DNA from: an uncultured Saccharofermentans sp.
Lineage (GTDB): Bacteria; Bacillota; Clostridia; Saccharofermentanales; UBA5734
Assembly: GCA_963675845.1 (NCBI GenBank)
Contig: OY776634.1
Coordinates: 1,431,605 to 1,495,604 of the forward strand
Length of the DNA: 64,000 nt
Direction: 5' to 3'
The translations under genes were made by a program, and so were the position numbers. The notes below the pieces were generated by a model. That model saw nothing but the letters and a program-made list of their open reading frames with translations, was not told the DNA's origin and searched no databases. Of the stretch, positions 6,206 through 64,000 are shown piece by piece (positions within the stretch are counted from its first letter, which is position 1; each line of letters opens with the position of its first letter).

Positions 6206-6209
6206 TCAA

Positions 6210-6521
6210 TCAGTCTCCCGACTGCTGCCTGGTCAATTGAAGAGACTCGTAGATGCAGTTCAGCATGGTCATCAGGCTGGCAACCGGAATCTCCAAACCA
6301 TTGCAGATCATGGATGCTTTGCATATACTGATGTTGTTCTTGCCGTTTTCAACCGTGCTGATATAGGACGTGTTTGTGCCGGCCCGATCGGCCAACTCGC
6401 TTTGCGAAATTTTCCGATACTCACGGATGCGTCTGATGAGTTGACCGGCGATGAGAGAATATGAATCCTTATCAATATGGTTGTTGCTAAAATTAGAGTA
6501 GTTATCTTGGTGTGTCGTCAT
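6210..6521 (-). CDS. XRE-family helix-turn-helix transcriptional regulator (~103 aa)
   Basis: The start was chosen at the internal Met (MTTHQDNY...), which is preceded by GAGGTG. The HTH segment is QSELADRAGTNTSYISTVENG. The longer ORF 6210..6698 would overlap the hflX start. Confidence 0.65.
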   Translation of the reverse strand: MTTHQDNYSNFSNNHIDKDSYSLIAGQLIRRIREYRKISQSELADRAGTNTSYISTVENGKNNISICKASMICNGLEIPVASLMTMLNCIYESLQLTRQQSGD

Positions 6522-6600
6522 AAAATTCACCTCGAGATGTCGTATCGATGCTATTATAGCATGCAATGACCAAGTGGCAAGTGTCTGGAGATGATTAAAT

Positions 6601-47014: not shown

Positions 47015-47195
47015 GAACTCTCCTTTCAATACCGAATAAAATATGCGACTCCTATTATAACTGTAATCAACTTGTAAAGCAAGCTGAGCAGGGTTGCCTT
47101 TCAGGACAACCGGGGGGGACGATAACTGTGTTAGAATATGGCTAATACGAGGCAATCAATATCTCATTTCCCTAAGTGTTAAGGAGTGGCTTTAT

Positions 47196-48623: not shown

Positions 48624-48746
48624 GTGCAGTAAGAAGCCTTGAAATAAAGGCTTTCCGGGGTTTGAACGCAAAAATCGGTTGAGCAAAAATCATCAAAATA
48701 GCGGTTCGTGGAAACAAGTCCAAAGGCATGATTTTGAACGTGACAG

Positions 48747-48824
48747 AGCGATTTAAATAACATGGGTCTGCGTGTGGTCGATTTAGATAACACGGGCTTG
48801 TGGTGGTCAATTTAGATGTTATGG
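48747..48824 (+). repeat. iteron-like direct repeats (GTGGTC.ATTTAGAT family), three ~29-bp units
   Basis: GCGATTTAAATAACATGGGTCTGC / GTGTGGTCGATTTAGATAACACGGGCTTG / TGGTGGTCAATTTAGATGTTATGG, read directly. They are related to repeats at 54260, 54886, 60589 and 62711. Confidence 0.6.
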
Positions 48825-48940
48825 ATTTTACGAGGGTATATGTTCAGGATAGATGAAGTCTATTAAATTGATATCAGAGAAAATGTAGGTTCTGATATGA
48901 GAGTTAGGGTCAATTGGATAATACGTGGGAGGAGACAGTT

Positions 48941-49828
48941 TTGACAGTATTAAACAATCAGTTTGGAAAAAATATTAAATACTTAAGAACTGCCTACGGG
49001 GAAACTCAATTAGACCTTGCGCTGGCTGTTGGGCTGGACTCGCCAAATGCAATTGCTAATTATGAAAAAGGAGAACGGATACCCAAACCGGAAATAAAGA
49101 AAAAGATAGCGTTACATTACCGTATAACGGAAGATGAGCTTGTCCACTCAGATTTTTCCGGAATGCAGGTTTCTTCATCTCAATTAGGAAATAAACAAAA
49201 AATGATTGAGATGACACTACTTATGTGCCCCATCACCTGCACTGATAAAGCGATGAAGGATTCTTTGTTTCAAAAAGGCTATGCAGCCCATATGCGCGCT
49301 CTTGATGCAATGAAGGACGGATTTACATTTGCCGATGCTGATTATGATATGTGTATAGGTGCTTACTCAGATTCTTACGATGAATATGAAACGCCAGAGT
49401 CGTTAGCTAATATTCTTTGGTGGTTTGTAATAACCGAGCTGAGTATGAAAAACCAGTGGATGATTGATGGTGCGGAAGCGTTGAGTGATAAAAGAGTCAG
49501 CAAGAAGGATTTCTTTAAGAACTTCTATCTAAAGGATTGCTCATTTCCAGATGAGGGAAAACTGCTTGGAGAAACTGAACTAAAAGATTTAAAGGAAATG
49601 GGCGAGACGGTCGTTGAATTGTTAAAAGAGCTTAAGAAGAATGCTCAATATTCAAATCTTGCAGATTATTATATAGCTCTTAGATATATTTTGGGGTGTG
49701 TTGATAATGAACTTACAGAAGCAATGAATAAAGCTGTTGGTTCCGAAATGATTTGGGCCTTTGCACAGCTTGGAAATAAATATGCAAAGAAGTTTATTTT
49801 GCTCGGAATTGAAAATTTGCGAAAATAA
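48941..49828 (+). CDS. XRE-family HTH regulator with large helical C-terminal domain (RNPP/Rgg-like architecture?)
   Basis: HTH_XRE (IKYLRTAYGETQLDLALAVGLDSPNAIANYEKGERIP) plus a ~220-aa helical C-terminus. The start was chosen at a TTG 7 nt after GGGAGGAG; the ORF-track start at 48914 is also a TTG. Confidence 0.55.
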   Translation: MTVLNNQFGKNIKYLRTAYGETQLDLALAVGLDSPNAIANYEKGERIPKPEIKKKIALHYRITEDELVHSDFSGMQVSSSQLGNKQKMIEMTLLMCPITCTDKAMKDSLFQKGYAAHMRALDAMKDGFTFADADYDMCIGAYSDSYDEYETPESLANILWWFVITELSMKNQWMIDGAEALSDKRVSKKDFFKNFYLKDCSFPDEGKLLGETELKDLKEMGETVVELLKELKKNAQYSNLADYYIALRYILGCVDNELTEAMNKAVGSEMIWAFAQLGNKYAKKFILLGIENLRK

Positions 49829-49922
49829 ACACTAACCTCACAAAGTGTGAGCGATAAAATCCTCTGAACTAATATAATGAATACATAAGTTATTCAAGTA
49901 TATCGTAAGGAGGATTTTTTAT

Positions 49923-50366
49923 ATGGAAGAGCAGAAGAAAGGTTTTTTAGTCTGGGTTAAGAAACATAGGAAGGAACTTATTATTGCAGGTATCAGTGCA
50001 ACCGCATTGATTGGGATTATTATATGTATGAAGAATCGTGATTCAATTGAAGCCCTTTGGAAATCACTGATTGGGGCAATAGAAAAATCTCCTACCGAGA
50101 CTACGAAAATATCTCAAACGACAATCGAGAAGATTGCACAATCATCCGTCACTGTTACAGATGCCATCAACCCAACCAAAATACCGGTTATCAATTCGGA
50201 AATAACTTATCAAAATTCCTTTGAAGTTAGTGATCATATCAGAAACCTGCATGAAGGATGGCGTGCTTCTGCAACAAAGATCACTGAAGCAGAGTCCATG
50301 GGAATTATACTTCAGGAGGGACAAACATTGGTCGACGCTTATACAAAGGGATCTGTTGCAGCATGA
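49923..50366 (+). CDS. hypothetical single-pass membrane protein (147 aa)
   Basis: Strong RBS (TAAGGAGG). TM helix LIIAGISATALIGIIICM near the N-terminus. Confidence 0.45.
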   Translation: MEEQKKGFLVWVKKHRKELIIAGISATALIGIIICMKNRDSIEALWKSLIGAIEKSPTETTKISQTTIEKIAQSSVTVTDAINPTKIPVINSEITYQNSFEVSDHIRNLHEGWRASATKITEAESMGIILQEGQTLVDAYTKGSVAA

Positions 50367-50424
50367 GTTTGAAAGTCCAGAAGCAATCGTATCTTTTAAG
50401 ACTTAATAAAAGGAGTGTGTAAAA

Positions 50425-50589
50425 AATGCAAATGTGTGGAGAATGCATGAAAGTTTATGATGAATCTGAATATACAAAATGCCCTTTTTGTTACAAAGAG
50501 AAAGATGAATATACGCATGTTATTGTCTATGACAAGGAAGCAGGTATAGCAAAATCAGTACTAAAGGAAGAAGCGCATCTCTATGAGTG
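50425..50589 (+). CDS. small zinc-ribbon protein (54 aa; CxxC-11-CxxC), not in supplied ORF track
   Basis: AAAAGGAGTG RBS, then ATG. MQMCGECMKVYDESEYTKCPFCYKEKDEY... Coordinates are approximate to +/-1 nt. Confidence 0.45.
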
Positions 50590-50689
50590 AACAGCATTTG
50601 ATAATAGCTGGCGCACATTAATGAGATTTGCATATTCCCAAATAGAGCAACCTGTAAAACTAATGGTTAAATGAGGAGGTATAGAAGTA

Positions 50690-50872
50690 ATGGGGGATAG
50701 ATTTCCTGATATTGATTGGTGGTGTGATCGTTGCAACGCATATTTAAATGGCCAGATAGGATTTGATGATCATAAGTATATTTGGGAGTGCACTGAATGT
50801 GGTCATAAAAATAGCATCTCAGCTGCAAATATTTACGAATCCGAAGAAGACTTCAGGAATGGAAACAATTAA
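50690..50872 (+). CDS. small zinc-ribbon protein (60 aa; CxxC-18-CxxC)
   Basis: GAGGAGG RBS. MGDRFPDIDWWCDRCNAYLNGQIGFDDHKYIWECTECGHKN... Confidence 0.5.
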   Translation: MGDRFPDIDWWCDRCNAYLNGQIGFDDHKYIWECTECGHKNSISAANIYESEEDFRNGNN

Positions 50873-50896
50873 CTACTGCTGCATATTCGGAAATAT

Positions 50897-50950
50897 GAGA
50901 AAAAAGCTCCTCGTCGCTAGCAAGAATTAGCAAAGGGAGCTTTTTTTATT
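50897..50950. terminator. bidirectional terminator hairpin (AAAAAGCTCC ... GGAGCTTTTTTT) between convergent genes
   Basis: 10-bp stem flanked by an A-run and a T-run. The loop contains a GCTAGC palindrome. Confidence 0.5.
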
Positions 50951-52469
50951 CTTCAACATCCACCGTCACGCCGGACTTAAATTCCACGGTGAATTTGTCC
51001 TCATAAACGGTGATCTTTTCAATAAGCCTACGGACAAGCGCTTCGTCGTAGTTAGCAATGGCAGTGGGTTGCTCCTGAAGAAAAGCGCTCATGTCGGTGA
51101 TGCGTTTTTGCAGTTCATCCCGGCCGAGGTTCTCGACCTGAGCCTTTTGCTTCTCATCACGTAGGCGATAGATTTCATCGCCGACCTTCTCGTAGTCAGC
51201 CTTTGAGCTGGCGAGCTTCAAGAGCTCTGCTTGAAGTTCTGTAAGCCGTTTATCGATTGCGGTAAGGGTATGACTGTTTTCGTGACAAATAACGGTTTCG
51301 ATGTTTTCTGCAGCGTGATGAGAAAATGATCTTTATCACACAATGCTTGGTTGATGGCCGTGACCATCACTTGCTCTAAAGTGCTCTAGTACCGTTCGGG
51401 CTTCGCAGAAAAGACCAGTGTTTTCTAGGCGGCTGACACACCGCCAAACAACTGATTTCTTGCCTCGGTTGTTCCAGTGAACCCTGCGGAACACCTCGCC
51501 GCAGCCACCACATACAATCATGTTAGAGAAACAGTGGATGCAGCTGAAGGTCCTGTTCTTTCCGTTCGGGCTGGTGTGGACGATGCGGCGTTGGATGAGT
51601 TCCTCCTGCACCTGCATGAATATTTCACGCGGGATGATGGCCTCATGGCTGTTTTCCACATAATACTGTGGGACGACGCCGTGGTTCTTTACTCGAGTCT
51701 TTGTGAGGAAGTCAGTGGTGTATGTTTTCTGTAAAAGGGCATCCCCAATATACTTTTCATTTCGTAGGATATGATTGATATTGCTGGTATGCCATTTTTC
51801 ATTTCCGGCACCATTTAGAATGCCATCGGCTTCAAGGCCGCGCTTGATTTTCAGCATACTGGCACCTTTGAGGTACTCCCGGTAGATGCGCTTTATTATT
51901 TCTGCTTCTTCGGGGACAACGATCAGGCGCTTATTCTCATCCTTTGTAAACCCGAGGTAACGGTTGCAGTTGACCTGGATTTCGCCCTGCTGGTAGCGGT
52001 ACTGAAGCCCCAGCTTCACGTTCTGGCTGAGGGACTGGCTTTCCTGTTGTGCAAGAGAAGCCATAATGGTGAGCATGAACTCGCCCTTGGAATCCATGGT
52101 GTTGATGTTCTCCTTCTCAAAAATGACTGGAATATTCTTATCCTTCAGCTGGCGGATGTATTTCAGGCAATCCAGCGTATTCCGGGCAAATCGGCTGATC
52201 GATTTTGTAATGACCATGTCAATAGTGCCGGCAATACACTCGTCAATCATGCGATTGAACTCTTCGCGGTGCTTGGTGTTCGTCCCGGATATGCCATCGT
52301 CCGCAAAAATTCCCGCTAGCTCCCAGCTTAAATTGCTCTTGATGTAGGAAGTGTAATGCTCGATCTGCGCTTCATAGCTGGTGGCCTGTTCGTCGCTGTC
52401 CGTCGAAATGCGGCAGTAGGTAGCCACCCGTAGCTTGGGCTGTTCCTCGTCTGGATTTTTGTTTGCCAT
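50946..52469 (-). pseudogene. large serine recombinase (resolvase domain + recombinase domain + zinc ribbon + coiled coil), interrupted by two compensating indels
   Basis: ORF 51336..52469 carries the catalytic [22 protein letters not shown] and zinc-ribbon Cys residues. ORF 50946..51221 continues the C-terminal coiled coil. Between them the true frame ([26 protein letters not shown]) is displaced by an apparent 2-nt loss in GAGAG and a 1-nt loss in an A5 run. Confidence 0.75.
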
Positions 52470-52792
52470 AACCTGTCCGTTTTAATTTACCAGTTATATT
52501 TTATCACGAGTAACCCAACGGCCGTTTTTAGGGTAGAAAGTTGGTTAAGATTTAGCACCCCTACCCCTAAAAGCATAAAAAAATCTCAGTTTTAGCACAA
52601 ATCTTTGAAATTCTTGGAATTTTTTGCTGACCTTCACCTTTTAGCCTGACTAGGCGAATAGTCGATTTCTCGGTGATTGAACATCCCCCGAAAACTCCTC
52701 ATTTATCTATATCGTTGAAAGATTTCATCTATCTCCATCATTACGTTTCTATCTCCATCAAAATATGGTAAAATGATGGAGAAAGATAGTTG

Positions 52793-53860
52793 ATGATGGA
52801 GATTAGTATGCATACTTTTGATTATAAATCTAAACCACTTCAATGCCTGACACCTGATATTGTTGCGCTGATCACAAAGATTCATGAGTGTAAGGGACGG
52901 CAGGAACTGTTCATTGAAGCTAATCAGGATGAATTGAAATCATTGCTGGATATTGCCAGGATACAAAGCACAGGTTCATCTAACCGCATTGAAGGCATTT
53001 ATACATCCGATAAACGTTTGGAAGAGTTAGTCAGCGAAAAATCTGAACCTCGAAACAGATTTGAACAGGAAATAGCAGGATATCGTGAGGTATTGTCATC
53101 CATTCATAATCAATATGAGTACATTGTTCCAAGACCAAATATCATTTTGCAATTACACAGAGACTTATACGCTTACTCAAGTTCTCCGATAGGTGGTTCC
53201 TATAAAAACTCTGATAATTTCATTTCCGAAATAGATGGTGATAGGAAACAGAAGACCAGATTCACCCCCGTATCTGCATTTCAAACACCTGACGCCATGA
53301 ACCAGATGTGTGAAGCATTTTTATCATCATATGAACAGCAGACAATAGATTCACTTATTCTTATACCGATGTTCATTCTGGATTTCCTATGTATTCACCC
53401 GTTCAATGATGGTAATGGCAGGATCAGCCGTTTGCTGACTCTGCTGCTGCTCTATCAAACGGGGTATATTGTTGGGAAGTACATGAGTCTCGAAATGCTG
53501 ATTGAAAAAACCAAAGAAACATATTATGAAGCACTCCAGGATAGCTCAACTGGATGGCATCAAGATGAGAACCGATATGAACCTTTTGTCAAATATTATT
53601 TGGGGATTCTGGTGAAGGCTTATAATGAATTCGAAAACCGTATTGAGCACCTTAAATATCGTAAAATGTCAAAGCCAGAGCGAATCAAGGCTGTTATCGA
53701 ACGGAAAGTTGGCAAGATTACAAAAAAGGAAATTATGGAATATTGCCCTGACATCAGCCAAGTGACTGTTGAAAGAACGCTGACAAATCTGGTTAATAGC
53801 GGCTATATTCAAAAAATTGGGGCAGGGCCTGCAACGGCATATGTAAAAATTGAGCAATAG
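52793..53860 (+). CDS. Fic-family protein (class II, N-terminal inhibitory SxxxEG motif; C-terminal wHTH)
   Basis: Fic active-site motif HPFNDGNGRISR and an inhibitory-helix-like SSNRIEG. It is divergent from the serine recombinase gene. The start is ambiguous (52790 TTG, 52793 ATG or 52808 ATG). Confidence 0.8.
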   Translation: MMEISMHTFDYKSKPLQCLTPDIVALITKIHECKGRQELFIEANQDELKSLLDIARIQSTGSSNRIEGIYTSDKRLEELVSEKSEPRNRFEQEIAGYREVLSSIHNQYEYIVPRPNIILQLHRDLYAYSSSPIGGSYKNSDNFISEIDGDRKQKTRFTPVSAFQTPDAMNQMCEAFLSSYEQQTIDSLILIPMFILDFLCIHPFNDGNGRISRLLTLLLLYQTGYIVGKYMSLEMLIEKTKETYYEALQDSSTGWHQDENRYEPFVKYYLGILVKAYNEFENRIEHLKYRKMSKPERIKAVIERKVGKITKKEIMEYCPDISQVTVERTLTNLVNSGYIQKIGAGPATAYVKIEQ

Positions 53861-53866
53861 AGAACC

Positions 53867-53902
53867 TTATCACCATCAAAATGCTTTAAATGATGGTGAT
53901 AA
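53867..53902. repeat. perfect 12-bp inverted repeat TTATCACCATCA-(12 nt)-TGATGGTGATAA immediately after the Fic stop
   Basis: Read directly from the sequence. AT-rich stem, so it could be an operator or recombination site rather than a canonical terminator. Confidence 0.5.
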
Positions 53903-54067
53903 AATATTGAATGATGGAGAAGCTGATTTATATCGAGCTTAGGCTCTGGCTTCCTGGTTATGAGAAGATATCCATCCTGACCACTTACTCCTATGCGCAA
54001 ATGTTCCCTTGGCCCAATGAGGTTTTTTGGTGATGTTGACTTGAATGAAGAAGCAAAAATTATGTGA

Positions 54068-54157
54068 AAATCACATCAAAACATCGAGCTGGGGCTCTCG
54101 AACCATGCTGAGACGGTGGTATTGATGTTAAGAGTCGAGGTTGGAAAGACGATATAA
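54068..54157 (+). pseudogene. displaced rlmD 3'-end fragment 1 (translates ...IELGLSNHAETVVLMLRVEVGKTI*)
   Basis: The in-frame translation is homologous to the intact RlmD C-terminus (GHVETVVLMSRVNK). It shares the core GAGACGGTGGTATTGATGT with the intact gene (GAGACCGTTGTATTGATGT). Confidence 0.7.
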
Positions 54158-54259
54158 AGGCGTTTGCGGTTTTGATGAAAAATAGAGAGTGAGCATCGTC
54201 ACAAGCCGGACATGCAAGTGTGCAGATCGATGGGGAGATATCGCAAAATGGTATTTTGC

Positions 54260-54310
54260 GAGTGGTCAGGCTGGATGTTGAGGGCGTGCCAGTGGTCAGG
54301 CTGATATTAT
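54260..54310 (+). repeat. iteron-like direct repeats (GAGTGGTCAGGCTGGATG / CAGTGGTCAGGCTGATAT)
   Basis: Two units spaced 30 bp apart, preceded by a small perfect hairpin CGCAAAAT-ggt-ATTTTGCG at 54242-54260. Confidence 0.55.
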
Positions 54311-54358
54311 ATGAAACGTGCTGTTATTTGACCAAATGTCACGATCGGGAGGAAATGT

Positions 54359-54847
54359 ATGAAAACGCTGAATCAGCTTATAGGTGAATATACTTGCCAT
54401 TTGCAGCAGGGAGAAATTCAGATTGCATATAAGGGAATATTGGAGTTCATTGGTAAATTGCGAGCTGATTTCGTTAAAAAATATCCGTGTTATGACACAA
54501 GTAGCATATACCAGGGCTATATGGACATGTCGTATTTTTCATTAAGCACAAAACCTTTAAAGGATAAGGGGCTAAAGATTGCTATCGTCTACCTGCACGA
54601 AAAAGGCAACTTTGAAGTATGGCTTTCCGCCCGAAACAGAGAAATATCCAAGCAATATGAGTCTGTATTTTGCGGTAAATCTTTGGATGGGATTACAGTA
54701 TTTCATGACGATAATAATCAGGACGCCATCATAGAATATACCTTAATTTCTTCACCAGATTTTGAGGATCAGGTAATTTTGACAGATATTATCGAGCAAG
54801 GTATCGAAGTGTTCATAACGGCTGTAAGCAATCACCTTTTATGCTAA
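54359..54847 (+). CDS. hypothetical protein (162 aa)
   Basis: An RBS (GGGAGG) precedes the ATG. No recognisable motif. Confidence 0.45.
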   Translation: MKTLNQLIGEYTCHLQQGEIQIAYKGILEFIGKLRADFVKKYPCYDTSSIYQGYMDMSYFSLSTKPLKDKGLKIAIVYLHEKGNFEVWLSARNREISKQYESVFCGKSLDGITVFHDDNNQDAIIEYTLISSPDFEDQVILTDIIEQGIEVFITAVSNHLLC

Positions 54848-54885
54848 ATTTATAGTTGATGAGCAAGATAGAAATGACATTTTGC

Positions 54886-54966
54886 GTGTGGTCAGGTTAA
54901 ATAACAGCGAAAATTGAGTGGTCAGGTTAGATGTCGGGTGAGAGCAAGTGGTCAGGTTGGATGTTT
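54886..54966 (+). repeat. iteron-like direct repeats, three units (GTGTGGTCAGGTTAAATAACAGCG / GAGTGGTCAGGTTAGATGTCGGG / AAGTGGTCAGGTTGGATG)
   Basis: Units at ~30-bp periodicity. They are nearly identical to the pair at 60589-60653. Confidence 0.65.
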
Positions 54967-55060
54967 TTCAAATACTTTGAGGTGAATGATAATATCAATG
55001 TTGATTTTATATAGAATTGTTTAGCCTCGAGCATTTAGGCCGCTTGGGAAGGAATCACAA

Positions 55061-56143
55061 ATGCAAAAAACGAATCGAATTGTTCAAATGCTTAGAATAA
55101 TCATGCCTGTGGTGGGAGTCATCTGTCTTGTGGTATTCCCGCCTTGGGACGGAATATGGGCTTGGATAACACCATTGCCTGACACTGTGCAAGAACAAGT
55201 TGATGACGCGATTGGTCATGGCTTGGATGGAATCGTTGTTTATGTTGATGAAGCAGGCCAACCACCAGCATTTTATACTGCTGGCTGGAAAGACCGAGAT
55301 AATCAAATACCAGCCGACCCGCAATCTTATTTCAAGATTGGGAGTGTCAGTAAGTTATATGATGCTGTTGCTGTTACTAAATTGGTCAATGACGGACGCT
55401 TGTCTTTAGATAAAACGCTTGCAGATTTCTTTCCAGAGCTAGCTGGAAGGGTTGAATATGCAGATGAGATAACCTTGAGAATGTTGGTCCAACATCGTAG
55501 TGGTATTCCCAATTTAACCGACCAGCCTGGTTACCGCTGGGATAACCCACCGAAAACCAGTAGAGAAGCACTTGCATTGATACTGGATAGGCCTGCTGAC
55601 TTTGAACCGGGTGAGAAATATGCTTATTCAAACACGAATTATTTATTGATTTCTGAAATTATTGAAAAGGTGTTGGGTTATAGCAATTTTCAGTACATCA
55701 AGGAGGAGATTTTGACCCCACTTGGCCTAAAGAATACCTTCGGGTCAATTCATGATGTGAATTTGGACGATGTTATGAGCGGCTATTACGTAGGCGTTGA
55801 GTCCGATTTTAAACATATTGATGCTGGAATAGTAGCGACAGCGGAAGATGTGGGTATATTCTTGAGAGCATTGAACGATGGCTCATTGCTTAATGATAAT
55901 GAGCAGGCCATTTACTCTTCAATATATGTGTATGGACATACCGGCTGGGTCCTGGGATACCAAAGCTTTGCTCGTTACCACAACGACATTGATACAGTCG
56001 TGGTGCAATTTGTGAATACAACCGGTGGAACCCCGATTATTCCGTTTTTCGATACACAAGGCGGAACCAAGGTGATGGTATCGGAGGTTGTTTACAATCG
56101 TATTGTCCGAATTCTGCGCAAGGAAATGAAGCTTGATGATTGA
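55061..56143 (+). CDS. serine hydrolase, beta-lactamase/PBP (class C-like) family
   Basis: SVSK (SxxK) active-site motif within ...YFKIGSVSKLYDAVAV... A YSN-like motif (YAYSNTNY) follows. Length is 360 aa. Confidence 0.75.
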   Translation: MQKTNRIVQMLRIIMPVVGVICLVVFPPWDGIWAWITPLPDTVQEQVDDAIGHGLDGIVVYVDEAGQPPAFYTAGWKDRDNQIPADPQSYFKIGSVSKLYDAVAVTKLVNDGRLSLDKTLADFFPELAGRVEYADEITLRMLVQHRSGIPNLTDQPGYRWDNPPKTSREALALILDRPADFEPGEKYAYSNTNYLLISEIIEKVLGYSNFQYIKEEILTPLGLKNTFGSIHDVNLDDVMSGYYVGVESDFKHIDAGIVATAEDVGIFLRALNDGSLLNDNEQAIYSSIYVYGHTGWVLGYQSFARYHNDIDTVVVQFVNTTGGTPIIPFFDTQGGTKVMVSEVVYNRIVRILRKEMKLDD

Positions 56144-56225
56144 GCTTACAGATCTTCGTTCGAGATTATCGTACATGACATGAATGAAGCTTGTCTCAAT
56201 TTATGAGGAAGGATCACAGAATTAT

Positions 56226-56840
56226 ATGGATAATAGCGTTATAAAGAAATATAGAGACTATGCATCTAAAATAGGCGATAGAGAATCTCTTTATGAAGCT
56301 GTAGCAAAAGAATTCTCTATTTGTAATGCCATTTATCCTGGATCACATATTGATATAGCCCCATCTCTGTTTATTCCTGAAGTAACCTATATTGATAATT
56401 TTAAGGGTGCAATTAGTTTTTTCAAACATCAGGACATCATAAAAGAATATATTGAGCATAACAAAAAGTATTCAGATGCTTGTAAGATTGATTTCATTGG
56501 GCAGGACTACACTCAACCACTTGAGATTGATCAAGTCGACTTGATTATTTCTCAGTATGCTGGTTTTGTCAGCCAGGCAACAAAGCGATATCTAAAAATT
56601 GGTGGAATCCTGTTGTGCAATGACAGTCATGGAGACGCAACGATGGCAAGATTTGATGATGATTTTGAGTTTATTGGCATTGTAGATAATCAAAACAAAA
56701 TTCGATTAACCGACATAGAGAATTACTTCAAATTACCAAAAGGAAAATCCGTTGATCTGGAAATAGTTAAATTAAAAATGAAGGGTTTGAAATATACATT
56801 GGTTGCTGAGAATTACATATTTCGCAAACTAACCTCTTAA
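56226..56840 (+). CDS. hypothetical protein (possible Rossmann/methyltransferase-like fold)
   Basis: ...VDLIISQYAGF...LKIGGILLCND... resembles MTase motifs II/III but no GxGxG motif was seen. The start is uncertain (56184 or 56226). Confidence 0.4.
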   Translation: MDNSVIKKYRDYASKIGDRESLYEAVAKEFSICNAIYPGSHIDIAPSLFIPEVTYIDNFKGAISFFKHQDIIKEYIEHNKKYSDACKIDFIGQDYTQPLEIDQVDLIISQYAGFVSQATKRYLKIGGILLCNDSHGDATMARFDDDFEFIGIVDNQNKIRLTDIENYFKLPKGKSVDLEIVKLKMKGLKYTLVAENYIFRKLTS

Positions 56841-57935
56841 AATCAACCATCACCCCTGACCGGAAAACCACCACGAACCGATCCTCATGAACCGTGACCT
56901 TGTCGATCAATCGCTGAACCAGTTTCTCGTCATATTCTTTGATGACCGTCGACTGCTTTCGGAGGGAAATGCTCATTTCGGAGATCCGCTTGCGAAGATC
57001 ATCCCGGCCGGCGTTTTCCACTTGAGCCTTCTGTTTTTCATCACGCAGTCGGTAGATTTCCTTGGTCACAAGGGTAATGTCAGCATGGGCACTGGCCAGC
57101 TTCAACAGTTGGATTTGCAGATCGTTCAGCCGCTGCTCAATGTCCTCGATCGCAGCATCATTTTTCATGCTGAGCACAGTGGCAATGTTGTTCTGCACAG
57201 TGGCCAGGAATGAATCCCGGCTTTTCAAGGTGGTGTTGATGGCGGTGACCAGAACCTGCTCAATGGTGCTTTCCAGAACCGTGCGAGCATCGCAGAACAC
57301 GCCAGTGTTTTCCAGCCGGCTGGCGCAGCGCCAAACGATTGATCGCTTACCGCGATTGTTCCAATGGACCCGACGATCGTACGGCTTGAGCAGATTTTGA
57401 CAGTGTGGACAGGCGATGGTTTCCGTCCCCGTGATTACAAACGATTTTGACTATCCCATTTTCTCTGGAAACGTGATACAATAACCATGTTTTTATTTTT
57501 GAAGACCTCGGGATGCTCCAACGTCAATTGGAGCTAGTCAACCCGGGGCCTTTTTCTTTCCTCCCGAATTATTCTTCGGTCATTATATCCGGCAGGTTTT
57601 GGACAGGCAAGTCCGGTAGCTTCTAGACACTATATCCCGGCTCAAGCACCAGGTACTCCCGATAGATGCGTTTAACAACCTCAGCTTCTTCTAAGACGAT
57701 GATCAGTTTGTCGTTTTCGCCGCGGGTGTATCCCGGAAATCGCTTGCAATTGACCTGAACCTCTTCCTTGCTGGTATCGGTACTGCAGGCCCATTTTCAC
57801 GTTCTGACTCAGCGACTGGCTTTCCTGCTGAGCAAGCGATGCCATGATCGTCAACATGACTTCACTTTTGTCATCCATGGAATTGTTGCTTTCTTTATAA
57901 CCCGATATGGGTAAATATTGGATAATAATACCCAC
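56767..57935 (-). pseudogene. large serine recombinase remnant (5'-truncated, internal deletion and frameshift)
   Basis: Segments homologous to the element-I recombinase: ...[31 protein letters not shown]..., then a frame switch to [39 protein letters not shown], then a gap, then ...[52 protein letters not shown]... to the C-terminus. The catalytic N-terminus is absent. Confidence 0.7.
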
Positions 57936-57994
57936 AATTCATTGACATGGGTAATAAATGTCAGTAAAATACCCATGTAAGGGGATTATATGTC

Positions 57995-59065
57995 ATGAAT
58001 GAGCAAAAACTACCTATGTTGCCACCAAATGCTGAATTGGAAACTAAAGCTGTGCTCAAGCAGCTGGCAAGATCCAATCGAGCATTGGCTGAACTGAAAG
58101 GTTATGCAGATACTATTCCGAATAAACATATTTTGATCAATGCGGTCATAATCAATGAGGCTAAGGATAGTTCTGCAATTGAAAATATCATAACAACCCA
58201 TGACGATCTTTATAAAGCTATGAGTGATGCAAGTGGTGCAAGTCATGCCGCAAAAGAAGTTGTGAGCTACAGGGCTGCTTTATGGCAAGGATATGAGTTG
58301 GTTATGGCACGTGAAATGCTGACAACAAATATGCTTGTTGAGATACAAGGAATTATTGAGAAAAACCGAGCAGGAATACGAAAACTGCCTGGTACCGTCC
58401 TTCGGAATGAAAGAACAGGTGAAACTGTATATACGCCGCCTGCAGGTGAATCTGAAATCAGAGAACTCTTAAATAATCTAGAAAAATACATCAATGAAGA
58501 CAATAATGATCTGGATCCATTAATAAAGCTGGCAGTCATCCATTACCAGTTTGAAAGCATCCATCCTTTCTATGACGGCAATGGAAGGACCGGCAGAATC
58601 ATAAATGTGCTTTACTTGGTATTGAAGGAATTGCTCCATAGTCCGATTCTTTATTTGAGCAGCTATATTATCAAGAACAAGTCAGCCTATTACAGATTGC
58701 TTCAGGAAGTTCGAACCCAAGAAAATTGGGAAGAATGGGTACTCTATATTCTCACAGGTATTGAAGAAACAGCAGAAGAGACACTGAGATTAGTCAAGAG
58801 AATCAATTTTGAAGTTGAAACAATGAGTGCTGAGATAAAGGAGAAACTTCCTAAAATTTATTCGAAAGAACTAATTGATTTGCTGTTTCATGAGTTTTAT
58901 ACAAAAACGATATATATTGAAAACGGCTTATCAGTAACAAGAAAGACTGCCGCAAATTACCTGTCTTCTCTTGAAAAAGAGGGCTTTCTTACTTCAGAAA
59001 AGATAGGAAGGGAGCGGATTTATCAAAACAAAAGATTGTACGACTTGGTTAAGTACGGGCAATGA
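57995..59065 (+). CDS. Fic-family protein (class II, inhibitory SAIEN motif; C-terminal wHTH)
   Basis: HPFYDGNGRTGR Fic motif and an SSAIEN inhibitory-helix-like motif. It is divergent from the recombinase remnant, as in element I. Confidence 0.8.
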   Translation: MNEQKLPMLPPNAELETKAVLKQLARSNRALAELKGYADTIPNKHILINAVIINEAKDSSAIENIITTHDDLYKAMSDASGASHAAKEVVSYRAALWQGYELVMAREMLTTNMLVEIQGIIEKNRAGIRKLPGTVLRNERTGETVYTPPAGESEIRELLNNLEKYINEDNNDLDPLIKLAVIHYQFESIHPFYDGNGRTGRIINVLYLVLKELLHSPILYLSSYIIKNKSAYYRLLQEVRTQENWEEWVLYILTGIEETAEETLRLVKRINFEVETMSAEIKEKLPKIYSKELIDLLFHEFYTKTIYIENGLSVTRKTAANYLSSLEKEGFLTSEKIGRERIYQNKRLYDLVKYGQ

Positions 59066-59355
59066 AGCTGAAATAGTATATCAGGCAACCTGGCATACAG
59101 TTATCTTTCTCAAAAATCACCGGGATGTTCTTATCCTTCAGCTGCCGGATGTATTATAGGCAATCCAGCGTATTTCGGGCAAACCGACTGATCGACTTGG
59201 TGATGACCATGCCAATATTGCATCCATGTACTCGTTATTTTTGCGATTGATTCGCCACTTTAGGGTAATATAAATAATCGTATTGATATTTGGCTTTGCC
59301 GCTTGCTTATGCCATAACATCAAGCAAGAAAGTCAAGTTAAAGCGTGGTGATCAC

Positions 59356-59694
59356 ATGAAACATTCACGGGAAATCTTAAATCTCGCAAAACAGAATAAT
59401 GGTGTAATCACCACCGCGATGGTTGTTGCAGCCGGTTTTCCGCGAGGAAGCCTTAAATATCTGGTGGATACCGGAGTTCTAGAAAAAGCTTCACGCAGTG
59501 TCTATATTCTGCCAGAGGTTTTGGAAGATGAATTCGTCAACCTGCAGAGCAGATTTAAACGCGGTATCTTTTCTCTGGGGACAGCGTTGTTTCTCTGTGA
59601 CTTGACGGACAGAACTCCAGGGAAGTATCACATGACATTCCCCAGCACTTATAATCTTTCGGGCCCGAAGGAAGCAGGTATCTTGTGCATATGA
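59356..59694 (+). CDS. AbiEi-like antitoxin (type IV TA), short form
   Basis: MKHSREILNLAKQNNGVITTAMVVAAGFPRGSLKYLVDTGVLEKASRSVYIL is an AbiEi N-terminal wHTH-like domain. It overlaps the downstream nucleotidyltransferase gene by 10 nt. Confidence 0.55.
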   Translation: MKHSREILNLAKQNNGVITTAMVVAAGFPRGSLKYLVDTGVLEKASRSVYILPEVLEDEFVNLQSRFKRGIFSLGTALFLCDLTDRTPGKYHMTFPSTYNLSGPKEAGILCI

Positions 59695-60358
59695 TCGGAC
59701 TCGATTCCAGAGCAACGATGGATATGGATGCAACGATTAAACGATATCCGGTAAGCGGGGAGACTGTTCGGACGATGGTTGAGGAAATTCTCAGGATCGA
59801 TCTTGATGACGTTATTTCTTTCACATTCAAGAAAATCGGAGAGATCAGAGAAGGGGATGAATACCCAGGATATCGTGTTTCACTAGTTGCTAATTATCCG
59901 CCTATGGCAGTTCCGCTGAAATTAGATATCACTGCGGGTGATAAAATCACACCACGCGAGATTGTATATGATTATAGACTGATGCTGGAGAATCGCAGTA
60001 TAAATGTGCTTGCCTATAATCTGGCAACAATACTGGCCGAAAAACTTGAAACCGTTATTTCTCGCGGCGATTAAAACACCAGAACGAGAGACTACTACGA
60101 TATCTTTATCCTGATAAAACTGCAGGCGGAGAATATTGATCTTAAAAACTTAGCCTTGGCTTTGCGTAAAACAGCCAGGAAAAGGGGCTCGGAGACGATA
60201 GTTAGGCAGTACCGGAGAGCATGGAAGCCGTGAGAAATAGTGAAGCTATGAACCGGCAGTGGTCCAATTACCGCAAGGATTTTGACTATGCAACCAACAT
60301 AGAATTTTTGGAAGTCTGTGATGTTGTAGCCAGCGTGATGTATAACCTGCTGGAATGA
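59685..60358 (+). pseudogene. AbiEii/AbiGii-family nucleotidyltransferase toxin, disrupted (in-frame TAA plus 3' frameshift)
   Basis: The N-terminal segment ends ...LETVISRGD-TAA-NTRTRDYYDIFILIKLQ..., continuing in the same frame. The C-terminal segment ...EAMNRQWSNYRKDFDYATNIEFLEVCDVVASVMYNLLE is in a different frame. Near the 5' end, EILRIDLDDVISFTFKKIGEIREGD resembles the family's conserved N-terminal region. Confidence 0.6.
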
Positions 60359-60478
60359 ACAGTCCAGTCATCAATCGTGGTTTTTCACAGACCTATACTC
60401 ACAGACATCAAAGGCAAGCTCTCGAACCACGTTAAGACGGTGGTCTTGATGTCGAGGGTTGAGGTTGGAAATGCCTGA
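60359..60478 (+). pseudogene. displaced rlmD 3'-end fragment 2 (translates ...VQSSIVVFHRPILTDIKGKLSNHVKTVVLMSRVEVGNA*)
   Basis: Homologous to the RlmD C-terminus (YEVQSIQPVDMFPWTGHVETVVLMSRVNK). It is ~80% identical to fragment 1 over the core and shares the GAGGTTGGAAA segment downstream of it. Confidence 0.7.
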
Positions 60479-60588
60479 CAATGTAGGGTTTGCCGATTTA
60501 GGGGATAATGGGGAAGTGAGAATAATGACGACCTTGGCCTTGTAAGAGAACAGATCGACGCGAGGAGACAGGAAAAATGGCAAGACTT

Positions 60589-60653
60589 GTGTGGTCAGGT
60601 TAGATAACAGCGACAATCGAGTGGTCAGATTAGATGTCGGGGTGAAGTTGAGC
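60589..60653 (+). repeat. iteron-like direct repeats (GTGTGGTCAGGTTAGATAACAGCGACAATC / GAGTGGTCAGATTAGATGTCGGGGTG)
   Basis: Near-identical to units 1-2 at 54886-54947, and at the same position relative to the rlmD fragment. Confidence 0.65.
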
Positions 60654-60730
60654 CTAGCTTGATATGGTACAATCGATACAAGAAATAGATAATTCAAAAT
60701 ATGAAGTATATGTAAGAATAGGGAACAATC

Positions 60731-61324
60731 GTGATGAAATTAGACGTTAAAAACTTAGAATGGACACGTGAGCCAAATGATTATGTAATTACTGAAGATA
60801 AAGTGGAAATTACGACGAAACCACATACAGATTTATGGCAAAGAACCTATTATCATTTTAGAAACGATAATGCACCGGTTCTGCAAATGGAAACAAAGGA
60901 AAAGTTTTTTTCATTTAGCGTTAAAACTGACTTTGATAGTAAAAAACGATTCGATCAATGTGGGGTTGTTGTGTACCTTGATCGTGATAATTGGATTAAA
61001 GGATCTATTGAGTTTGAAAATGAACATTTTCAACATTTAGGAAGTGTTGTTACAAACAATGGTTATTCTGATTGGGCAACAACAGAAATTCCAGCTAATA
61101 TCAAATCAATGTGGTACCGCATAAGTCGTAGAGAAGATGATTTTTGCATAGAGTGTTCTAGTGATGGTAAAACTTATCAGCAGATGAGAATATGCCATAT
61201 GTTCAATGCACAAAATATTATTAAGTTTGGAATTTATGCGTGTAGTCCAGAAGACTCTACCTTTAAAGCAACATTTTCAAACATGGAAATTACCGAATGC
61301 CAGTGGCCTGCACATACAAGTTAG
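60731..61324 (+). CDS. DUF1349-like (concanavalin-A-like lectin/glucanase fold) protein
   Basis: 197 aa. ...LEWTREPNDY...DLWQRTYYHF... resembles DUF1349/YesU-like proteins, from memory. Confidence 0.5.
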   Translation: MMKLDVKNLEWTREPNDYVITEDKVEITTKPHTDLWQRTYYHFRNDNAPVLQMETKEKFFSFSVKTDFDSKKRFDQCGVVVYLDRDNWIKGSIEFENEHFQHLGSVVTNNGYSDWATTEIPANIKSMWYRISRREDDFCIECSSDGKTYQQMRICHMFNAQNIIKFGIYACSPEDSTFKATFSNMEITECQWPAHTS

Positions 61325-61801
61325 CAACAAGGACTCTCTCACTTGGTGAACTAAAGAAACTTATGAAAAAAGCAGCGTAAATACTAGAAGCAGTGACCAT
61401 GACAATAATGCATGTTTAAGAGGCCTGAGTCATCTGGAGCAGGCCTTGCCAACGGGATATGGACTCAGTTACGTCAGATGGACAAAAACCTCGTTGGCAG
61501 ACAGGTTGCTGAATATGACGCGCATGAGTTTTTCGTCGGTATGGCCAAGGGCAATGAAATAACGCTTGCCTTGGGCCTGCGTGGCAGCCTGGCATCGACC
61601 AAAAGTCTCGCAATGCTAAGCGGCCAGCCGTGCCGCCTGCATCAAAATCCAGCGCGGATAGATTGAGCCGTGCTTAACCATCGGTGTTTTATCAGCTTTG
61701 AATATGCCAATGCTGATTTATATCAAGAATCTGTCAGAAAAGCTGTAAGCCAGGCGATCAGAAAGCATGTAGATAGCCATTGGGAATAAGGGAGACGCAC
61801 A

Positions 61802-62635
61802 ATGTACAATCATAACATCGAAACGCTTATCAGAAACAGACGCTCTGTTCGAACCTATTCGAGTGAAACAATCGAAGGGGAGAGAATTCAAGAACTAAAA
61901 GCTACGATGAAAAAGCTAAGTTCTGAGAAAATTCGATTTGAACACACTCAGTTTAAATATGCTGAAGGTGAGAAGATTTCAACTTATGGGTTCATAAAGG
62001 GTGCGGAAAACTACATTGTAGGTATTGTTGATCTTAGCGTATTAGACGATAAGGAATTGACCATTAGGTTTGGCTATCTATTTGAACAAATCATATTGAA
62101 GGCAACAGATCTTGGATTTTCAACCTGCTGGATGGCAGGGACTTTTAAAGCTGACGATATACGCAAAAAAATCGAGATCAAGGAACACGAACGAATTGTC
62201 ATGTTATCACCAATTGGCATAGAGCAGAGGCCAAGCATGAAAGAAAAATTGATCAGAGCAGTTGCTCGAGCAGATAACCGGAAAGAATGGCAGTCACTCT
62301 TCTTTGACAAGAACAACCAAACGCCCTTGAACAGAGAGGATTCGGACAAATACACCCTGCTGCTTGAAATGGTTCAACTTGCACCGTCGGCGGGCAATAC
62401 TCAGCCTTGGCGCATCATTAAGAATGATGACAGGTACGATTTTTATGCTGCTTCAACAAGATATTCTGACTCAAAAGCAATGCGTTTGAATGTTGGTTAC
62501 AATGATCTTGGCATAGCCATGGCACATTTTGAATTGTCTGCTGTCGAAAACAATATTAAGGGACAATTTATCGATTTAAAACAGAAAAACTATGATACAT
62601 GGGAATATATCAAATCATGGATTGCCGAAGATTAA
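61802..62635 (+). CDS. nitroreductase-family protein
   Basis: The N-terminal RRSVRTYS motif is typical of NAD(P)H nitroreductases. Length is 277 aa. Confidence 0.7.
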   Translation: MYNHNIETLIRNRRSVRTYSSETIEGERIQELKATMKKLSSEKIRFEHTQFKYAEGEKISTYGFIKGAENYIVGIVDLSVLDDKELTIRFGYLFEQIILKATDLGFSTCWMAGTFKADDIRKKIEIKEHERIVMLSPIGIEQRPSMKEKLIRAVARADNRKEWQSLFFDKNNQTPLNREDSDKYTLLLEMVQLAPSAGNTQPWRIIKNDDRYDFYAASTRYSDSKAMRLNVGYNDLGIAMAHFELSAVENNIKGQFIDLKQKNYDTWEYIKSWIAED

Positions 62636-62710
62636 GGCTGGAATATTACTGATATAAGGGTGATTTCGGATTTGAAAATAATAGCAAGTGTTTATGATCA
62701 GCCCCCTGCC

Positions 62711-62739
62711 GAGTGCCAGCGGTCAGGTTAGAGGGGCGG
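62711..62739 (+). repeat. single iteron-like unit (GAGTGCCAGCGGTCAGGTTAGAGGGGCGG)
   Basis: Matches the GGTCAGGTTAGA core of the repeat family. It lies upstream of the SDR gene. Confidence 0.45.
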
Positions 62740-63707: not shown

Positions 63708-64000
63708 ATCCGAGCAATTCAGTCTATACTAATCTTGAGATGCTGATGAATAGATCAAGGGGCAGGCATCCAGCTTAACAGATTGTCCGATTATCTGTTG
63801 ACGACCCATGATGAGGTTAAGTCAATGATTGCGAATTCAAAACAAATGGTTAAACTGAAGTGCTTTTCTCTTGTTTTTGATTTGTTGTTCGAATGAAAAG
63901 TTTGAAACGTTATTTGCTCTTGCTGATTAAAAAAAGCAGTCAATAGGTGGTGAACATATGGAGATTCAGATATACAGCAAAGCTAATGAACCTTTGCTTT

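Follow-up and report, generated by a model that had tools for sequence, protein, structure and literature searches.

The 20-bp units recurring downstream of rlmD in the 64-kb stretch of DNA analysed here (the window) belong to a ~280-bp module of phased half-sites, which is hitherto unreported and is present in many Bacillota genomes. These units are read, with somewhat better than even confidence, as putative arm-type accessory binding sites of a serine recombinase, that is, as reiterated attP-type half-sites of integrative elements that target rlmD. This reading draws on the anatomy and conservation of the module, the resemblance of its units to the recombinase half-site, its position at the crossover and its association with serine recombinase genes.

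Matches to GTGGTCAGGTTAGAT with at most 3 mismatches numbered 12 in the window against 1.22 expected, a count reached by none of 100 shuffles, and TGGTCAGGTT gave 18 matches (at most 1 mismatch) against 3.25 expected; the phased units listed in a preliminary description of this DNA are thus real. Their proposed spacing of 29–31 bp was borne out by start-to-start steps of 29 (48772/48801), 30 (54260/54290), 30/30 (54886/54916/54946) and 30 bp (60589/60619). In a matrix scan, all strong unit copies (score >18) fell within 48772–62736 on the + strand, besides one copy at 53967–53986 on the - strand, so that the claim of a single orientation stands for all strong copies but this one. Over the 47 kb of chromosome preceding the island, no unit match scored above 14. 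The GC content drops from ~0.55 to ~0.41 exactly at 48.6 kb, where the low-GC island to which the GTGGTCAGGTTAGAT-type units are confined starts inside the 3' end of rlmD, and the motif is therefore island-specific within the window. The near identity noted between the arrays at 54886 and 60589 amounts to 92% across 53 nt, and the clusters placed ~110 nt after the displaced rlmD fragments lie 113 nt (54147 to 54260) and 118 nt (60471 to 60589) from the fragment ends. Additions to the first list comprise the - strand copy, a degenerate unit (48742–48761) and a weak one (48838–48857), the latter two completing a four-unit array behind the live rlmD gene (Table 1); by alignment, this array is homologous to the 30/30/39 type of other loci described below.

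Table 1. Positions of rlmD, recombinase genes, recombination sites and unit arrays in the window.
Feature	Positions	Strand	Basis and remarks
rlmD (23S rRNA U5-methyltransferase), target gene	47094–48623	+	ORF; rlmD homologues at other loci
attB-left half-site TTGATATGTTCCCTTGGACAGG inside rlmD	48559–48580	+	Score 23.0, matrix from right-arm repeats of other elements
Crossover region and P' core half-site (GAGACCGTTGTATTGATGTC at 48588–48607); left end of element 1, start of block 1	48582–48611	+	Breakpoint; half-site pattern
Inverted attB-left-type half-site TGGACTTGTTTCCACGAACCGC inside block 1	48701–48722	-	Score 24.8
Array 1	48742–48857	+	Units 48742–48761 (degenerate), 48772–48791, 48801–48820, 48838–48857 (weak); spacing 30/29/37
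Large serine recombinase gene, element 1	50946–52469	-	Broken: ORFs 51336–52469 and 50946–51221; Resolvase, Recombinase, Zn_ribbon_recom domains
Lone opposite-orientation unit, right arm of element 1	53967–53986	-	Matrix score 21.4; inverted repeats
attP-like junction, element 1/element 2, 50 bp	54080–54129	.	P-left 54080–54099, 10-bp centre, P' 54110–54129
Array 2, closing block 2	54260–54305	+	Unit 54260–54279, partial unit 54290–54305; repeats, matrix scan
Array 3	54886–54965	+	Units at 54886, 54916, 54946; left-truncated block; repeats, matrix scan
Second large serine recombinase gene, remnants	56767–57935	-	56767–57300 and 57681–57935; 77–78% match to first gene (direct repeats); cluster 2
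Second attP-like junction	60404–60453	.	P-left 60404–60423, 10-bp centre, P' about 60434–60453
Array 4, closing block 3	60589–60638	+	Units 60589–60608, 60619–60638; repeats, matrix scan
Single weaker unit CAGCGGTCAGGTTAGAGGGG upstream of SDR gene	62717–62736	+	Matrix score 18.7; conserved in L136 at 14722; probably a relic

The arrays are the closing part of a larger conserved block. A scan of 185,579 species genomes yielded at least 118 loci, about 105 of them with true arrays, in which the layout is stereotyped: four 20-bp units stand at the end of the block, spaced 30/29/41 or 30/30/39 (30/29/41 in 41 arrays; 30/39–40 in 22). The block is 289–295 nt long, with a P'-to-unit distance of 156–157 or 183–184 nt, and retains ~76–90% identity across Clostridia, Bacilli and a few other phyla. 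Its units are near-invariant while the spacers vary, and both spacing and block length are fixed over two diverged block types and more than 60 arrays, which suggests purifying selection on the units relative to the spacers. This conduct, seen in more than 100 loci, agrees with the earlier suggestion that the units behave like protein-binding sites. At a fixed position 43 nt before unit 1, 69 arrays at other loci carry an inverted attB-left-type half-site (median score 21.9 with a matrix built from right-arm repeats only; background frequency 1.2e-5). Two hairpins lie within the block, and in the alignment a hairpin followed by T's can be seen by eye just past the rlmD stop codon. In 70 of 119 matches, block similarity stops within 2 nt of one position, where unit 4 finishes, and at least 30 unrelated sequences take over from there, although a weakly conserved leader runs on past unit 4 in many loci; what follows is variable, co-oriented cargo, including Lnu(D)-like and Vat genes at other loci.

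The left boundary of the block coincides with a recombination crossover inside rlmD, directly after CATGT. A related strain (L136, 97% identical) matches rlmD as far as 48586, beyond which its block and cargo are different ones; this sets the breakpoint of the strain polymorphism at 48586/48587 and makes the last ~37 nt of rlmD (from 48587) element-derived. Elsewhere, the left limit of block conservation clusters at the equivalent of 48582–48611, and in 50 loci the arrays are preceded at ~142 nt by the end of an rlmD homologue. At the register of the attB-left half-site, native rlmD genes have GGGAACATGTC; attL in the window spans 48559–48607. Displaced rlmD 3' fragments, found as direct repeats at 54094–54147 and 60418–60471, overlap two junctions at which inverted half-sites flank a 10-bp centre, the form of a large serine recombinase core site. 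At the first, P-left reads GAGAGCCCCAGCTCGATGTT on the - strand and the half-site pattern matches both strands 10 bp apart; at the second, P-left reads GAGAGCTTGCCTTTGATGTC on the - strand, again a pattern match, and P' is AAGACGGTGGTCTTGATGTC. In reverse complement, the right ends of many elements show GAG-N9-TTGATGTC in register with P' (GAGACGGTAGTATTGATGTC), and the core is hence a 50-bp inverted repeat, (reverse complement of GAG-N9-TTGATGTC)-10 bp-(GAG-N9-TTGATGTC).

The 20-bp form of these core half-sites recurs in the units, which read GAG/GTG-TGGTCAGGT-TAGATGTC, the shared scheme being GAG/GTG-N9-TAGATGTC, and the form common to units and crossover half-site is GAG-N9-T(T/A)GATGTC. 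In the whole window, the pattern G[AT]G-N9-TNGAT[GA][TA][CT] picks out two P' core sites, five units, two P-left sites (opposite strand, precisely 10 bp away from P') and only two stray matches. Scored with the unit matrix, P' falls among the top 0.04% of background positions, and units and P' have the GTC/AAC alternative in common; the similarity of unit to P' is moderate (13–15 of 20 positions), part of P' being constrained by rlmD coding.

Serine recombinase genes are the only recurrent neighbours of the arrays (34 loci), and the recombinase of element 1, a cognate enzyme with Resolvase, Recombinase and Zn-ribbon domains at 51336–52469, clusters with those of the 34 array loci. Overall, these enzymes measure 303–593 aa and have Resolvase and Recombinase domains with or without a zinc ribbon; intact genes of 522–593 aa occur in L068, L029, L070 and others. 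The elements are mostly 2–6 kb in size, without transfer genes, and the smallest (~2 kb) consists of the block, a 307-aa recombinase and the right arm, with the recombinase gene directly after the array. In many elements, the right arm bears two to three direct copies of the attB-left-type half-site. Elements of 2–6 kb devoid of transfer genes are nevertheless found in several classes and phyla at ~90% identity, so that their movement requires help. The internal arrays of the island are left-truncated copies of the block, ragged at the left and intact at the right, in keeping with the earlier view of them as left ends of eroded elements. Array 3, whose block is fused 20 nt past a DUF7000 gene, is accordingly read as the left arm of a decayed element; similar truncations occur in L114 and L082.

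According to the reading that we prefer, each element starts with a ~280-bp left arm that contains a P' core half-site, which also restores the rlmD reading frame, two hairpins, an inverted half-site of attB-left type and four directly repeated 20-bp units at ~30-bp steps; cargo, recombinase gene(s) and the right arm come next. The units may be bound by recombinase subunits or by the small (143-aa) protein, consisting of the recombinase domain only, that is encoded next to some of the recombinases; a larger complex assembled in this way on the arm would control synapsis or the direction of recombination and possibly also the expression of the first downstream gene. The deeper arrays of the island would then be left arms of older elements, which repeated integration had stacked and which subsequently lost their recombinases. 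Of the two roles offered by the preliminary description, regulator site or recombination-accessory site, the latter appears to fit best, given the core half-site form of the units and the nearby inverted attB-type half-site. The binders it named fare worse in general, as Fic proteins are absent from all the other ~115 array-bearing loci and a 304-aa XRE protein recurs in one other locus only. Several observations count against an accessory role: the distance between units and crossover is 157–275 bp; the resemblance of unit to P' is no more than moderate; and at least two recombinase families, one lacking the zinc-ribbon domain, accompany both array types, so that array and enzyme do not co-vary. 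The clustering of more than 30 different cargo junctions to within 2 nt of where unit 4 finishes is explained only loosely by selection on the arm alone.

Accessory sites are familiar from small serine recombinases, the ~200-aa resolvases and transposases with a C- or N-terminal helix-turn-helix domain, as in res II/III of Tn3/gamma-delta, the directly repeated site II of Sin/beta and the subterminal repeats of IS607. Such sites are copies of the binding motif in cis beside the crossover, some in direct repeat, and build a regulatory synaptic complex. The present units likewise are related to the crossover half-site and hold a fixed position in cis; the differences are that the arm has five sites over 160 bp, up to 275 bp from the crossover, and that the enzymes, at 303–593 aa with a Recombinase domain, are not of the small resolvase, invertase or IS607 type. 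The attachment region also recalls lambda-like attP, being >400 bp long with phased repeats on both arms around a short core. The arm-type and Xis sites of lambda, however, are unlike its core and are recognised by a separate domain, whereas the arm repeats here resemble core half-sites and no tyrosine integrase is present. SCCmec and other SCC elements use large serine recombinases at the 3' end of rlmH (orfX) and form tandem cassettes with resistance genes and recombinase-less pseudo-elements. Recombinase class, integration at the 3' end of an rRNA methyltransferase gene, stacking and recombinase-less elements are thus shared, while target gene, recombinases and host range are not, and phased half-site arrays are not known from SCC ends.

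The 3' end of rumA (= rlmD) is a recognised hotspot of serine-recombinase ICEs and IMEs in streptococci and other Bacillota (PMC11578063, PMC5704250), with the same target gene and recombinase class as the present elements. The accretion/CIME scheme, in which tandem stacking is followed by decay to recombinase-less elements that keep their att sites (PMC5704250), fits the window, with its three rlmD ends and broken recombinase genes, as well as L007, where a recombinase-less unit at 5165–7001 lies between ordinary P'/P sites. Published rumA att sequences are short, e.g. 20 bp for ICESag37 (PMC5633684), in contrast to the conserved 280-bp arm with phased repeats and the mostly 2–6 kb size without transfer genes seen here; in the literature searched, the unit strings occurred nowhere and no such arm or repeats are described. 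The large serine recombinases studied so far act on sites of <50 bp without accessory sites (PMC1470463, PMC4111918), and the proposed role is therefore without precedent in that subfamily.

Several other classes were rejected. The units cannot serve as core att sites, given their distance from the crossover and direct orientation. 'Iterons' in the plasmid sense, the name first given to them, do not apply, as no Rep family occurs among the island proteins or recurrent neighbours and the periods are 29–31 and 39–41 bp instead of a contiguous ~22 bp. The earlier dismissal of CRISPR and of attC-type dyads stands: units of 20 nt are separated by 9–21 nt in at most 5 copies, the 'spacers' are conserved between genomes, and an inverted-repeat check in the window found the units without dyad. 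Multi-site transposon ends (Tn7, Mu, Tn402), which bear inverted arrays at both ends along with a DDE transposase, were discarded because the 8-kb loci showed almost no opposite-strand arrays and no recurrent transposase. As for structured RNA, there was no credible Rfam match, and the arrays showed no conserved RNA fold (consensus fold -3.1 kcal/mol, 0 compensatory pairs).

Among rival explanations, the units could form a transcription control region at which a regulator, possibly the recombinase itself, activates or represses the promoter of the first cargo or recombinase gene. We regard this as rather unlikely. In its favour, 78 of 91 distinct junctions have a co-oriented gene first after the array, at a median of 83 nt, which also fits an expression role of the arm; the hairpin and T's after the rlmD stop make read-through improbable as the sole source of expression; the recombinase gene stands directly behind the array in minimal elements; and a -35/-10-like pair follows array 3 at 54965–54993. 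Truncated blocks do retain the gene-proximal units, but their left truncation points are spread fairly evenly, as for random deletions. Moreover, no -35/-10 pair is conserved at a set distance from unit 4 in the loci inspected, the arrays have no regulator gene as a regular companion, and the half-site resemblance and nearby attB-type half-site would be left unexplained.

The sharp end of the block at unit 4, with its unrelated continuations, could instead mark a site-specific, integron attI-like insertion point for cassettes. Cargo of single small genes in one orientation, including the resistance genes, and several arrays only 0.8–1.3 kb apart in L082 and L114 speak for it; yet cargo 3' ends carry no recombination site (the DUF7000 gene is followed by four unrelated contexts, and by no common site in five), there is neither a tyrosine integrase nor an inverted half-site beyond unit 4, the leader continues past that unit, and the P'/P-bounded recombinase-less unit of L007 lets accretion at the rlmD crossover explain stacking. 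We consider it improbable, and about equally so that the block serves transfer or maintenance of an excised circle, as an oriT hijacking a helper relaxase or as iterons or a centromere for a helper protein. Such help would suit small, widely spread elements whose conserved non-coding DNA is limited to the block and the right arm. On the other side, the arrays are not accompanied by rep, par or relaxase genes, their 30-bp period and interrupted units set them apart from known iterons, the units have no inverted repeat resembling a nick site beside them, and the half-site resemblance is again unaccounted for. That the units are functionless duplications of the neighbouring P' site, which they resemble, hitch-hiking with a successful element family, seems very improbable in view of their near-invariance against varying spacers and the fixed dimensions of both block types.

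The resemblance to integrons nevertheless extends to one chromosomal platform gathering small co-oriented genes, several of them resistance-type; integron sites proper were rejected, as only serine recombinases, and no IntI, attC or attI, are found, and stacking at rlmD is accounted for by attP x attB-type recombination at its core site. Returning to arm-type accessory sites, a wider proposition, which we hold tentatively and at less than even confidence, is that of a widespread rlmD-targeting family with a two-armed attachment region of >400 bp bearing phased half-site arrays, with five sites in the left arm and two to three in the right one. If true, it would provide a first case of arm-type control over recombination by large serine recombinases, and the module would let recombinase-less cassettes (lnu(D)-like, vat) be stacked and mobilised in trans at one site Bacillota-wide, as a serine-recombinase counterpart of the integron platform.

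Twelve matches to GTGGTCAGGTTAGAT at up to 3 mismatches were obtained in the window against 1.22 expected, a count that none of the shuffles reached, and the 10-mer core of the unit, as we term the 20-bp repeat, gave 18 matches against 3.25 expected. Apart from a single copy on the opposite strand, all strong copies found by position matrix lie on the + strand within 48772-62736, and the 47 kb of chromosome left of the island contains none. The start of this motif-bearing region coincides with a fall in GC from ~0.55 to 0.41 at 48.6 kb. With unit spacings of 29-30 bp and the above excess over expectation, the phased repeats of one type that the preliminary description had claimed for the island are borne out. 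A possible fifth, gapped unit (TTAGGGTCAATTGGATAATACG) at 48903-48925 overlaps the start of the gene for an XRE-family protein and scores under the matrix threshold.

Decayed integrative elements are stacked in the island at the 3' end of rlmD (= rumA), the 23S rRNA methyltransferase gene; besides two Fic genes, the island carries mixed cargo, namely the XRE-family protein, DUF7000, a class-C-beta-lactamase-like protein, DUF1349, a nitroreductase and an SDR. This 3' end is a published hotspot of serine-recombinase elements, and the stacking pattern of the window matches the published accretion/CIME scheme of tandem stacking and decay (PMC11578063, PMC5704250). From the second Fic gene to the second rlmD fragment, the third recombinase fragment together with the broken Abi ORFs points to at least one further element in decay. 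The low-GC island extends beyond position 64000 by 5 kb or more, and no further arrays were found there. A 30-nt inverted repeat at 52731-52803, with arms 83% complementary and 13 nt apart, is placed between the recombinase gene start and the first Fic gene start and may be an operator for this divergent pair; an Rfam microRNA match at the same position is spurious and was produced by the inverted repeat.

Features of the window and of array loci from the scan of species genomes (L-numbers)
Feature	Location	Strand	Remark
rlmD	47094-48623		
Inverted attB-type half-site	48701-48722		score 24.8
Broken large serine recombinase gene	50946-52469	-	
Lone opposite-strand unit	53967-53986	-	position matrix
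Displaced copy of last ~50 nt of rlmD	54094-54147		
Array	54886-54965		block cut off 18 nt ahead of unit 1, fused behind DUF7000 gene
Second broken large serine recombinase gene	56767-57935	-	
Third serine recombinase gene fragment	59100-59221		86% identity with 52107-52228
Broken AbiEi/AbiEii-like ORFs	59290-60074		after third recombinase fragment
Second displaced copy of last ~50 nt of rlmD	60418-60471		
Lnu(D)-like lincosamide nucleotidyltransferase gene directly after array	L022, L025, L046, L066, L068, L079, L112, L113		
Zinc-ribbon-less 303-309-aa serine recombinases	L043 3196-4119, L129 3697-4620, six other loci		conserved
127-143-aa protein between two large serine recombinase genes	L068 4180-4611, L029, L036, L072, L102, L027		

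A scan with a two-unit pattern, one genome being taken for each species, gave at least 118 stretches with chance matches estimated at ~26; true arrays are present in ~105 of the at least 118 stretches listed. Among these listed matches, 41 arrays have four units at a spacing of exactly 30/29/41; in 22 further arrays the layout is a homologous 30/30/39 and the first unit is degenerate. The isolate hosts among them include Fusibacter (F. tunisiensis DSM 24436), Anaerovirgula (A. multivorans SCA), Syntrophomonas, Desulfotomaculum, Calidifontibacillus (C. erzurumensis P2) and Companilactobacillus, and metagenome bins contribute many Clostridia and a small number under the labels Anaerolineae, Bacteroidales or Treponema. 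Three contigs of a viral collection also bear the array, and terminal overlaps indicative of circularity were not found on them. Plasmid and phage collections queried with window 54050-55070 gave no informative matches; in the literature searched, the unit strings were not found in any paper, and papers on rumA elements give short att sites only.

Arrays form the right end of a conserved ~280-bp block, whose length is constant at 289-295 nt in both array types. The alignment places the block start inside the rlmD 3' end, between CAC and GTTGAGACGG..., and the sequence left of it always belongs to native rlmD or to another element's right end. In 50 loci among the matches listed, the distance from the end of a full species-specific rlmD gene to unit 1 is ~142 nt. 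Mean column identity over 32 diverse copies is 76%, with near-invariant units and variation in the spacers. The block has a sharp right edge (70 of 119 matches stop no more than 2 nt from the final base of unit 4), and internal copies have ragged left edges. Two hairpins were seen by eye, unscored, after the rlmD stop codon at window 48630-48690 (alignment A1 columns 52-100). Stem sequences of the two block types differ, but complementarity is kept in the first (CCCTT/AAGGG vs TCCAG/CTGG) and in the second (ATGGGT/ACCCAT vs AGATTT/AAATCT); with T's behind it, the first hairpin resembles a terminator for rlmD.

A 3.2-Mb contig (L136; ERZ21831104) of a 97% identical relative, which came up through exact look-up of one window protein (two others gave no match), has rlmD in common with the window as far as 48586 (...GGGCATGT). 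Past this point it has a different block, with three units at 487/517/547 (spacing 30/30), and its first element after rlmD (L136 1-3350 vs window 48587-51350) has two other ORFs in place of the XRE gene; similarity returns inside the recombinase gene, near 51350. Since identity ends at 48586 and is followed by a different block and cargo, the crossover lies near CATGT with recent turnover there, and from this comparison the block is part of the element to its right. Another Fic gene fragment (L136 16613-16968) has 86% identity with window 58593-58948 and lies beyond the equivalent of the window's end. The earlier suggestion that internal clusters mark left ends of eroded elements agrees with the truncated block in the window, and L082, L114 and L022 likewise have truncated or relic blocks. 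These internal blocks fit accretion followed by deletion, as does a 1.8-kb element without recombinase (L007 5165-7001) made of a block, three ORFs and a right arm, whose contig stops at the next crossover.

Element right ends, read as reverse complement in a fixed register, are often GAG-N9-TTGATGTC, which mirrors P' (GAGACGGTAGTATTGATGTC), the core half-site at the block start, across a 10-bp centre and thereby gives a textbook 50-bp inverted-repeat core. The units, GAG/GTG-TGGTCAGGT-TAGATGTC, have the length and conserved ends of these half-sites and share with P' the GTC/AAC alternative, and P' falls in the top 0.04% of background by the unit matrix. The half-site pattern G[AT]G-N9-TNGAT[GA][TA][CT] recovers in the window the P' sites at 48588 and 54110, five units and two strays, and on the other strand the opposing P-left half-sites at 54080-54099 and 60404-60423, exactly 10 bp from P'. 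Judged by sequence, the units are thus putative copies of the half-site. A gapped unit/P' alignment (GTGGTC + 3-4 nt + TTGATGTC) was dropped for the ungapped 20-bp register because the P-left half-sites share the latter. In the left half-site of native rlmD, ATGTC is 3 bp closer to the centre; large serine recombinases discriminate attB from attP by such spacing differences, and by analogy the shift would be of the kind they read. Many right arms carry 2-3 direct repeats TTGACnTGTTCCCnnGAACnG, copies of this attB-left half-site, and a matrix from these repeats alone detects an inverted copy in the block, fixed 43 nt before unit 1 (median score 21.9, background frequency 1.2e-5). The left arm therefore consists of the P' core, hairpins, one inverted attB-type site and four attP-type units, the latter at ~30-40-bp steps.

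Serine recombinases are the only recurrent partners of the arrays (34 loci among the matches listed). They come in three arrangements: an operon (as in L068) for a 535-aa and a 522-aa recombinase with a 143-aa recombinase-domain-only protein encoded between them; a 303-309-aa protein (307 aa in L043) that has Resolvase and Recombinase domains but lacks the zinc ribbon and is encoded immediately behind the array; or 570-593-aa recombinases whose genes read into the crossover. The 127-143-aa proteins give a weak Recombinase-domain match, lack a catalytic domain and are candidates for a DNA-binding partner. Block and 303-309-aa recombinase make up a minimal ~2-kb element, with an inverted repeat AATAGGCTAAyyAACAT...ATGTTTATTAGCC in front of each recombinase gene and AATAGCCTAA twice in the right arm. 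The XRE and Fic proteins, proposed earlier as binders, were rejected, as among the array loci listed Fic occurs in no other and XRE in only one other.

At least ~30 unrelated sequences lie beyond unit 4, the ~30 junction classes being a lower bound only since array ends were mis-called and leader clusters blurred, and many unrelated cargo junctions are no more than 2 nt away from the end of that unit. The first gene is co-oriented with the array in 78 of 91 distinct junctions, at a median distance of 83 nt. At many loci (for example L066, L119, L091, L123, L055 and L098) unit 4 is followed over ~50 nt, as far as the ribosome-binding site, by a weakly conserved leader (...GCAGCGATAAAT...GAATTTGAAnGGAG), which is common to loci with differing downstream genes (L066 vs L119; L097 vs L101). 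Cargo in other loci includes a Lnu(D)-like nucleotidyltransferase (322.6 bits, cutoff 325) and a Vat streptogramin acetyltransferase (344.6 bits, cutoff 300); in L022 (2864-4156), a relic unit (TCGAGGTTTTATGCCAGGTTGAATGT) and a Vat-family gene follow the Lnu(D)-like gene.

The simplest reading of these sequences is that the units are arm-type accessory sites, at which recombinase subunits or the recombinase-domain-only protein would bind and which might control synapsis, direction or adjacent-gene expression. The main rival is a transcription control region, favoured by co-orientation of the downstream genes and by the minimal elements, where the array immediately precedes the recombinase gene; a fixed promoter or a regulator was not found. 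A promoter scan gave no enrichment and none at a fixed distance from the arrays, and -35/-10 pairs read by eye near unit 4 were of inconsistent spacing. An integron-like insertion point at the end of unit 4 is unlikely, because the cargo genes are without a common 3' site. Roles as origin of transfer, iterons or centromere are opposed by missing partner genes, and Tn7/Mu-type transposon ends were rejected since inverted arrays and a transposase are both absent. A structured RNA is excluded as far as Rfam (no credible matches on the island and four related loci) and a consensus fold of 32 blocks (arrays without structure) reach.

Small serine recombinases use accessory sites, and the role proposed for the units would by analogy be closer to these. 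Arm-type units would be a departure from the accepted picture, in which large serine recombinases need only sites <50 bp (PMC1470463, PMC4111918). The block is a practical marker as well: with one 20-bp pattern, every element's left end can be located and the stacked and decayed elements of the rlmD hotspot told apart in genomes and metagenome bins of many Bacillota. Some of these elements have genes for lincosamide and streptogramin resistance. Large serine recombinases are valued in genome engineering on the view that ~50-bp sites suffice and no accessory DNA is needed; if the units function as control arrays, there would be an extra layer of control over synapsis, direction or expression in a natural family.
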